64,000 bases of DNA from Eledone cirrhosa (lineage: Eukaryota), in the NCBI GenBank assembly GCA_964016885.1, contig OZ024742.1, forward strand, positions 196,974,001 through 197,038,000. Direction: 5' to 3'. The notes beneath the pieces are model-generated. The model ran no database searches, was not told the DNA's origin, and was given only the letters and a program-made list of their open reading frames with translations. Positions 27,401-30,400 of the stretch are shown one piece after another; the stretch's first letter is position 1, and each line of letters opens with the position of its first letter. Position numbers and translations under genes: made by a program.

Positions 27401-30400
27401 GCTTTCTGGAGAATAGAGGAAAGGTGTTTCCTCAAAAACCAGTATGACTCTAAAAACCGGTTTGTCTGTGTGTTTACATACAGAATAGCTGGCCACTCAC
27501 AGTAAAGTGACCAGTGAAAAAACTTGGTACATCTACATATGTATACGTGTGTGTATTCATATACATACTAGTATTTCAGTATACATATATGGATGTACAT
27601 CTTTAACTTAATTGTTTAAGCGTCAGTCATACAAAAGTGAGTTACAAATGAAACAAAATTTAATTTCGTTTCGTTATTTGTTTTTATCGTCTCCGTTGAA
27701 CCGGTACTTACTCACACTCTATGCAAATTAGTATGCCCACTACTAATTTTCATAGAAAAAGCATATAACGATATGTGCTTTTACGATTCTCTAGAGAGGC
27801 CGGAAGATAGGTAAATACACATATATATACACACACATATACATATATACACATAAATATATATATATATGCACATATATATATATACACATACATATAT
27901 ATATATACACACACATATATATATACACACATATATATATACACATATATATATATATACACATGTATATATATATACACATGTATATATATATACATAC
28001 ATACATATATATATACACATGTATATATATATACACATGTATATATATATACACATGTATATATATATATACATGTATATATATATACACATGTATATAT
28101 ATATACACATGTATATATATATACATATATATATATACATATATATATATATATACACATGTATATATATATACACATGTATATATATATACACATGTAT
28201 ACATATATACACATGTATATATATATATATACATATATATATATATATACACACATATATATATATATACACACATATATATATACACATGTATATATAT
28301 ATACATATATATATATACACATATATATATACACATATATATATATACACGTATATATATATACACATATATATATATATATACACATATATATATATAT
28401 ATACACATATATATATACATATACACATATATATATATATATACACATATATATATACATATACACACATATATATATACAGATGTATATATATATATAT
28501 ACATATATATATATATATACATATATATATATATATACATATATATATATATACACATATATATATATATACACACACATATATATATATACACACACAT
28601 ATATATATATACACACATATATATATATACACACATATATATATATACACACATATATATATATATACACATATATATATATATATACACACATATATAT
28701 ATATATATACACACATATATATATATACACACACATATATATATATACACACATATATATATATACATATATATATATACACACACATATATATATACAT
28801 ACATATATATATATACATACATATATTTATATACATACATATATATATACATACATATATATATACATACATATATACATACATATATATATATATATAC
28901 TTGTGAGTACATTTTCCTTTAACTACAAATTATTATTATATACTTTCGTCTTTTCATTAACTTAATTAATTTCAAATAACCAGAATATACATATATATAT
29001 ATATATATACTCATATTTATATATATACTCTTCTCACTCACACACAAGAAAAACAAAAAACAAAAATAAATCAAAAATAAATTAAAAAAAAATATATATA
29101 TATTGAAATACTTAACTAAAACACACACACACTCAAAACTAGAATGGCTAACCAGCAAAAATCCAAACTGGTCTGATAATGAAATCGACATTCTAATAAA
29201 CACATGGCATTACCTTTCCCAAACAGAAGACATACATGCTTCATCTCTGAACGACATTGCTAAACGTACAGTTCAATTTTTGAAAACTCGATCTGAACAA
29301 CAGATTCAAAATAAATTAAAGCAAATCGAAATTGCTTTTAAATTAATCAATAAACATTTGGATAAACTACGGTGTGTTTTCTCTTCGAATGCTGTCCAGC
29401 AGCAGCAACAACAACAACAGCAGCTACAACAGCAACAACAACAACAGCTACAACAACAACATCAACAACAGCTACAACAACAACATCAACAACAGCAACA
29501 ACAACAACAACGACAACAACAGTGTGAACCACTCCTTGATTCATCAACAATGGCCGATCTACTAAATGAAACTATTGACCCCCCAGTAGCCTCTGTCTCA
29601 CAGCATGAAACGCCACATCCTTTCGCTGGCCCAGCAGTCCAATCATCACCACTGCCAACATCTCTGCCTACTACTACTACTACTACTACAACATTTTTGT
29701 CTACTGCTATGTCAAGGAATTTACCTTCTAATACCAGAACAAGAACTCTCCCTCCCACAGTCCACAAAGGTCGTCAAATCCTACCCAAACCATCATCTAC
29801 ACCTCTCACAACACACACACCCACATACCCACCCACTCGAAACCCCATCATTTGCCGCTACTCTCTACGCTATAGAATATGTACGGATAGTGGCTGCAAA
29901 TTCACCCATTTACCTAGGACAAAACGATCTATCCCCACAAACAGCCACCACCATAATACATACTCTAATTTAACACCAACACAACCACCAATAACTCAAA
30001 CAAGGAATCCACAAATCTGCCGTTTTTCCCTGCGAGACAGATTGTGTTTAGACCGGGATTGTCCCTTTACCCATCTCCCGGGGACCCGTCGGACAAATGA
30101 AAATAAAATTAAAAATAAAAGCAAAAACAAAAACCATAACCTACATAAAAATAACCACTACCACAGTCACCAACAGTCTTCTAAACAGGAAACTTCTTCC
30201 TCTTTTTTAGCTATAATGAATCTGGCAAAAGAACTGGAAAAAAACATTCGAGCTATCACCCAGCACCACCCTCCACTATCACCCCACTGCACAAACTCCC
30301 ATTGCTGCCATTAACAAACAAACAAATTAACAACACACCAAAACAATTAAAACCATCCACTCTCGCCTCTACATTTTTGCTTAACGCCCAAGGCATCAGC

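Follow-up and report, generated by a model that had tools for sequence, protein, structure and literature searches.

A damaged APE/RT LINE of Eledone cirrhosa with a −1 ORF1/ORF2 overlap and a candidate U_UUU_UUA slip site

Introduction

Frameshifting by −1 is standard in retroviruses, and the heptamer U_UUU_UUA is slippery by itself. In HIV-1 gag-pol the structural ORF comes first and the enzyme ORF follows in the −1 frame without an AUG of its own. For LINEs the mode of ORF2 translation is an open question according to passages of PMC3894237 and PMC5009743, L1 and the reinitiation of SART1 being the worked cases. Both elements have a bicistronic RNA with low ORF2 output, and according to part of PMC3894237 little ORF2p is needed by LINEs. 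L1, whose ORFs are separated by a spacer, does not strictly need an ORF2 AUG, and SART1 uses a UAAUG stop-start. In the Dictyostelium elements TRE5-A and TRE3-A the ORFs overlap and ORF2 is stated to need a −1 frameshift (passage in PMC5911963). Within passages of a large frameshifting review (PMC5009743), the only non-LTR elements mentioned are HeT-A, TART and L1. Ribosomal frameshifting is also unmentioned in passages on LINEs of the CR1 group, the Jockey superfamily, octopus, bivalves and gastropods (PMC13343379, PMC4120745, PMC9115989, PMC10294476, PMC11203168), and PMC2881922, PMC4700185 and PMC1925062 added nothing on frameshifting. A literature search, with subscription papers and Repbase Reports mostly outside its scope, returned no description of −1 frameshifting for the animal CR1-like clade. 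A −1 shift has been asserted for the non-LTR element TRE5-A; new here would be a variant in an animal clade.

The window analysed here is a stretch of 64,000 nt of Eledone cirrhosa (GCA_964016885.1, contig OZ024742.1, positions 196,974,001 to 197,038,000, forward strand) that contains one LINE copy. A sequence-only reading of the window had proposed that an ORF1-ORF2 fusion protein is made by programmed −1 frameshifting at an HIV-like site, and its naming of U_UUU_UUA as an HIV shift site agrees with part of PMC5009743. The element shares with HIV-1 gag-pol the heptamer, its phase and the order and frame of the two ORFs, but it is a non-LTR element with APE and RT, without protease, integrase or 3′ stem-loop, and GCU instead of GGG follows the heptamer. 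TRE5-A and TRE3-A are amoebozoan, target tRNA genes and carry a C-terminal zinc finger in ORF2, whereas the window element is from an animal and has a Myb/CCCH ORF1. Instead of the stop-start of SART1 there is a −1 overlap of 130 nt. With the CR1 group (CR1, L2, Daphne, Crack, Kiri) and Proto2 the element has in common an ORF2 with APE and RT and a short tandem 3′ tail. Given the statement on TRE5-A and TRE3-A, a −1 shift in a non-LTR element is not without precedent.

Results

Layout and condition of the element

The LINE copy lies between two long TA/CA microsatellite arrays, and searches of the 64,000-nt window with blastn and tblastn returned no second copy. The following features were assigned.

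27817..28900, no strand: 5′ flanking (TA/CA)n array, 1.1 kb
28901..33409, + strand: near full-length two-ORF APE/RT non-LTR retrotransposon copy with frame breaks; approximate boundaries, taken from the flanking microsatellites
29144..30314, + strand: ORF1, likely start ATG 29144; main frame open 29070-30314; frame break near the A-run 29157-29161
29163..29360, + strand: Myb/SANT-like domain of ORF1 (Pfam PF13837, E 5.6e-4, below the curated cut-off)
29853-29909 and 30018-30074, + strand: two C-x8-C-x4-C-x3-H fingers, a sequence pattern common to 11 ORF1 relatives
30185..30314, + strand: ORF1/ORF2 overlap of 130 nt, ORF2 in the −1 frame
30203..30209, + strand: in-phase heptamer U_UUU_UUA where the C-terminal helix of ORF1 begins with Ser-Phe-Leu
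30239..30245, + strand: second in-phase heptamer A_AAA_AAC, alternative candidate slip site
30326..30328, + strand: ATT in the ORF2 frame, 11 nt past the ORF1 stop; may be a non-AUG start or a decayed one
30185..30970, + strand: ORF2 piece 1, a low-complexity linker followed by APE; codon of the first conserved Asn at 30383; break near 30878
30877..31587, + strand: ORF2 piece 2, C-terminal part of APE plus linker; frame broken at the A8 run 31542-31549
31454..33322, + strand: ORF2 piece 3, with the reverse transcriptase (RVT_1 at about 31937-32668; Pfam PF00078, E 3e-32) and C-terminus
33323..33409, + strand: 3′ UTR with a doubled 10-nt unit at its end, followed by the TA array
33408..36651, no strand: 3′ flanking (TA/CA)n array, 3.2 kb

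From N- to C-terminus, ORF1 consists of the Myb/SANT-like part, a poly-Q stretch, the two CCCH-type fingers and the C-terminal helix. Its Myb/SANT-like region is 47% identical to that of P0244, which itself passes the PF13837 cut-off, and the fingers were matched to zf-CCCH in the ESM Atlas at 0.81-0.83, values below 0.9 that serve as a lead only. CCCH fingers are absent among the ORF1 types in passages of PMC4120745 (0 CCCH matches).

The element has the composition of a LINE, with APE (Pfam Exo_endo_phos, E 1.8e-7, in the −1 frame) ahead of RT in ORF2, no LTRs and a repeat 3′ tail. Short tandem 3′ tails are typical of CR1/L2, and the doubled 10-nt unit at 33389-33409 is likely a clade-typical tail; a similar doubled 10-mer ends the element at L001. 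The unusually long TA/CA arrays on either side possibly reflect a preference of the LINE for TA repeats or growth of the repeats after insertion. Elsewhere in the window a 43-bp minisatellite was recorded at 3227-4164 (21.8 copies, 92% matches), and a diverged portion of it occupies 2971-3173.

Besides the junction of the two ORFs the copy contains three frame breaks, two within ORF2 and a third close to where ORF1 starts, all of them at short homopolymers, and it is therefore not an intact, transposition-competent copy. With ORF2 in three pieces and ATG 29144 out of frame with the Myb-like region, the window copy is damaged or mis-assembled. A perfect 588-bp palindrome with a 25-nt spacer (26418-27618, with further nested perfect arms to 27817) sits 1.3 kb upstream of the LINE; it is likely a fold-back assembly artefact or a very recent duplication and is a warning about local sequence quality. 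The copy damage had been left out of the sequence-only reading, as had two near-cognate codons after the ORF1 stop, ATT 30326 and TTG 30377, the latter two codons ahead of the catalytic Asn.

Geometry of the junction

The heptamer TTTTTTA at 30203-30209 is phased as X XXY YYZ on the ORF1 codons TCT TTT TTA. The −1 frame opens behind TAA 30182-30184 and meets no stop across 30185-30970, a stretch that runs through the APE domain. No ATG occurs in this frame before 30626, well beyond the codon of the first conserved APE Asn (30383), and ORF1 stops at TAA 30312-30314. The coordinates given in the earlier reading are all correct; it overlooked A AAA AAC at 30239-30245, a second canonical in-phase heptamer. 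The junction thus combines an in-phase X XXY YYZ heptamer with an open −1 frame that leads into a conserved domain without a start of its own.

The stop-free −1 stretch of 43 codons has a chance probability of 0.03-0.06. At least one in-phase heptamer is expected in such a stretch with P 0.19, as determined by shuffling of the ORF1 codons with a heptamer pattern that counted GGA as first triplet, and the 343 upstream ORF1 codons hold 0 in-phase heptamers. With the element's own codon usage, a codon choice that yields TTTTTTA at Ser-Phe-Leu has a probability of about 0.03. The evidence for frameshifting from the window copy alone is weak, and one copy proves little because of its three other frame breaks and the second heptamer.

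As the sequence-only reading had also stated, no strong stimulatory structure is found downstream: positions 30210-30300 fold at −7.4 kcal/mol (z −0.18). Four fold windows after the first heptamer gave z 0.14, 0.70, −0.06 and 0.24 and thus no stimulator. After the second heptamer z ranged from −0.33 to −1.74, the best helix close by having 5 bp. Local folds revealed no stem-loop or pseudoknot 5-9 nt 3′ of the slip site, and Rfam gave no match in 28900-33420 at E<=1. The signal is therefore likened to the canonical cassette and not counted as a member, since the 3′ structure is missing. Coupling of the SART1 type was not seen at the ORF1 end either, where the stop context is CAT TAA CAA, without ATG.

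Relatives and the ORF1 C-terminus

The RT of the window element is 33-38% identical to bird CR1-type proteins. In an RT tree of 60 rows, built with no named references and no outgroup and leaving out L027 for its broken RT, the element groups with a clade of 45 rows (98/95) that does not include the bird CR1-type rows. Its sister row (100/99) is from Argonauta hians, whose P0010 has 60% identity in RT, and an Octopus vulgaris ORF1 piece, P0248, is also among the nearest named relatives, which points to an octopod as the likely host. A homolog search with APE only gave 4 matches. The out-of-clade protein P0214 has a 2A-like NPGP motif near its N-terminus; such a motif is another recoding route known in CR1-type elements (passage in PMC3894237).

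The search with ORF1 gave 21 matches, of which 16 were retrieved; 11 have the finger and 9 the C-terminal helix. In 8 of the 9 relatives with the helix, [S/H/D]FL begins it at the position of the heptamer; the form [S/D]FLE also fits an ordinary helix N-cap. The closest ORF1, P0246, is identical at 16/37 positions from the FL motif onward and ends within one residue of the window stop. Because helix and tail are kept in relatives and in P0246, the ORF1 frame is under selection past both homopolymer runs, and because the end of its nearest ORF1 relative coincides with its own, the junction is probably not another, private indel. The N-termini of the ORF1 proteins differ within the clade, all preceding CCCH fingers: Myb/SANT-like with poly-Q in the window element, which was grouped with P0244, P0245, P0248 and P0261; Tudor-knot-like in P0254; and, by eye, with Cys-rich PHD-like segments in P0153, P0253 and L002.

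Start codons and conservation of the slip site

ORF2 starts were surveyed in 123 proteins, one of them an out-of-clade row, and 90 of these had at least 880 aa. The called start lies after the catalytic Asn in 65 of the 90 (within 15 residues in 42, later in 23) and upstream of it in 25, counts that are limited by gene callers avoiding overlaps and writing GTG/TTG as M (P0384 vs P0395). This Asn is needed in yeast Zorro3, where its loss cripples the element (part of PMC1965478). Among the nearest tree neighbours the called starts are not conserved, being located at −134, −42, −13, −13 and inside APE. The lack of an ATG upstream of the endonuclease, read earlier from the window copy, is in this sense borne out, with no conserved ATG upstream of APE among the relatives.

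In the ORF2 frame U_UUU_UUA encodes Phe-Phe followed by an A-starting codon. This signature was found in 3/20 extensions (0.39 expected, P 0.003), the [FKG]F form in 6/20 (2.26 expected, P 0.008) and the loosest form in 10/20 (6.27 expected, P 0.027), all patterns having been picked after the sequences were seen and proteins not fixing codons. Phe is absent from the long extensions of three close relatives, P0126, P0127 and P0132. Conservation of the slip-site heptamer thus appears to hold in part, the −1 overlap being kept and the type of heptamer varying.

Frame relations and fusions at the protein level

Twenty-four N-terminal extensions of ORF2 were scored for ORF1 motifs in neighbouring frames by likelihood decoding. 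Strong −1 decoding was obtained for three of them, P0140 (LLR 16.8), P0141 (14.0) and P0154 (9.4), the null maxima being 6.7 (helix) and 4.2 (finger). Scores below 9 were disregarded, as L002, a true −1 control, gave 4.7 in +1; further marginal false +1 scores were 5.0 for P0161 and 8.3 for P0153 (over an in-frame finger). The procedure is insensitive, as both true −1 DNA controls (L002, L020) were missed. Decoding by maximum score was dropped as too degenerate, only P0140 standing out (z 6.1). When P0154 was compared with the ORF1 protein P0254 for joint encoding in −1, 24/30 positions were compatible; the null maximum over 220 pairs was 19 and the best +1 pair reached 20.

Fingers are joined to APE-RT in 3 of 243 proteins, P0140, P0156 and P0153. 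In P0140 the frame changes at the FL motif, which gives it the shape of the predicted transframe product, with an open −1 frame from the FL site; as a single record it may be a homopolymer error or a T-run slip. P0156, represented by 3 full-length members, and P0153 have the appearance of genuine single ORFs, and the existence of such natural fusions indicates that an ORF1-ORF2 fusion protein is tolerated in the clade. The single frame for ORF1 and ORF2 that would have refuted the earlier reading was not seen for the window element, whose ORF1 keeps a conserved tail and a stop of its own past the heptamer. Among the 15 members listed for each of 10 large ORF2 clusters, no further long extension was seen. 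Predicted ctenophore gene models also join ORF1 and ORF2 (P0138).

The −1 overlap in DNA of relatives

A contig scan returned 30 loci (L001-L030), most of them without the junction; two loci of the same clade, L002 and L020, span it. The scan revealed that GTDB representative genomes contain animal LINE contigs, which are probable host-animal contigs in microbial bins, that is contamination. In L002 ORF2 lies in −1 with an overlap of 217 nt (P(open) 0.002-0.005) and an in-phase A_AAA_AAC that follows the opening of the frame by 21 nt. In L020 it lies in −1 with an overlap of 157 nt (P(open) 0.001) and an in-phase G_GAU_UUU in the first codons of the open frame. Each overlap exceeds what the locus's own density of −1 stops would lead one to expect. 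Both heptamers are known shift sites (part of PMC5009743), with chance probabilities of 0.23 (L002) and 0.48 (L020) for the heptamer alone, and L020 holds 5 in-phase heptamers further upstream in ORF1. Within the overlap, both loci contain AUGs that are in frame with ORF2, and no stimulatory fold was found at either junction. The conservation in relatives that was called for in the earlier reading is therefore partial: the −1 overlap recurs, but the U_UUU_UUA signature is limited to 3/20 extensions and the DNA relatives have A_AAA_AAC and G_GAU_UUU.

The more distant CR1-like two-ORF locus L027 has ORF2 in −1, no Met before APE, and A_AAA_AAU with a hairpin 7 nt downstream (−25.3 kcal/mol, z −2.7) that holds the ORF1 stop. 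By its sequence this is a textbook −1 signal (L027 4659-4710), in an element whose ORF1 is without CCCH fingers and whose RT is broken. L006, L009, L010 and L021 belong to other clades and consist of one long ORF each, and L008, with a non-overlapping upstream ORF, looks like a broken single-ORF type; all five were counted neither way.

Discussion

With slightly better than even confidence, the window element is read as a damaged APE/RT LINE whose active family makes ORF2 by low-level −1 frameshifting in the overlap, with U_UUU_UUA as candidate site. Frameshifting is the best reading because there is no conserved ATG upstream, the ORF1 tail is conserved and the −1 overlap is recurrent. The fusion by frameshifting that had been proposed from the letters of the window is upheld to this extent, but it is weakened by a heptamer that is conserved only in part, by the missing stimulator and by the in-overlap AUGs of two relatives. 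Most ribosomes would finish ORF1 with its Myb-like part, CCCH fingers and C-terminal helix. A small share would slip by −1, most likely at U_UUU_UUA (or else at A_AAA_AAC), drop the helix, read about 60 low-complexity linker residues and enter endonuclease and RT, and the outcome would be a ratio of ORF1 to ORF1-ORF2 fusion like that of gag to gag-pol. Without a stimulator, the slip rate would be low. We infer the slippage, the heptamer used, its efficiency and its action without an RNA stimulator from this arrangement.

The alternative with most in its favour, though unlikely, is a separate ORF2 made by AUG-independent termination-reinitiation as in L1, for instance at ATT 30326 or TTG 30377, or by back-scanning into the overlap, so that the heptamer would be a by-product of the Phe-Leu helix. 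The ATT is 11 nt past the ORF1 stop, and the TTG precedes the catalytic Asn by two codons. In mammalian L1 a non-AUG sense codon is tolerated for ORF2 (passages in PMC1965478 and PMC5009743), SART1 reinitiates (passages in PMC3894237 and PMC10275272), and folding did not reveal a frameshift stimulator. Reinitiation gives, however, no reason for a −1 frame that is kept open over the 43-72 codons before the ORF1 stop, and it leaves unexplained the roughly 150 open residues in P0154 and P0141 as well as the FF signature. An ordinary ORF2 AUG in the active family, in the overlap or just past the ORF1 stop, may have decayed in the window copy; ATT 30326 differs from ATG by a single base and lies close to the starts of P0001 and P0014, the copy carries three other indels, and L002 and L020 have AUGs in the overlap. 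This is rated as quite improbable, the start positions varying among the nearest relatives and 65/90 being called after the Asn.

It is highly improbable that the element is a single-ORF type in which the junction is one more indel, from decay or from a sequencing error in the T6/A7 run, even with the three other breaks at short homopolymers, the hint of assembly trouble from the palindrome and the single ORFs of P0153 and P0156. Beyond both runs P0246 conserves the ORF1-frame tail up to the stop, 9 relatives conserve it as a helix, and −1 junctions recur in independent relatives. Just as little probability was given to a fusion at the RNA level, by polymerase slippage on the U6/A7 run or by splicing out a short segment. 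Each of the two candidate sites is a homopolymer run, the fusion in P0140 falls at the FL site and the predicted ctenophore models join the two ORFs, but the X XXY YYZ phasing in the window, L002, L020 and L027 is something that polymerase slippage does not need, and the L027 hairpin stands at frameshift spacing.

Beyond this element, frameshifting may be a property of a large and widespread invertebrate clade of CCCH-ORF1 LINEs, with a stimulator-free −1 shift at the start of the helix that toggles with in-frame fusions as in LTR gag-pol; this wider proposal is tentative and somewhat doubtful. Its hosts would be octopods, ctenophores and many marine animals. The conserved −1 overlap, the candidate slip site and the natural fusions together form a short cassette for a direct test. 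If frameshifting is true, the endonuclease-RT would carry the RNA-binding fingers of ORF1 in cis, and automatic annotations that start ORF2 inside the nuclease would be wrong for these elements.
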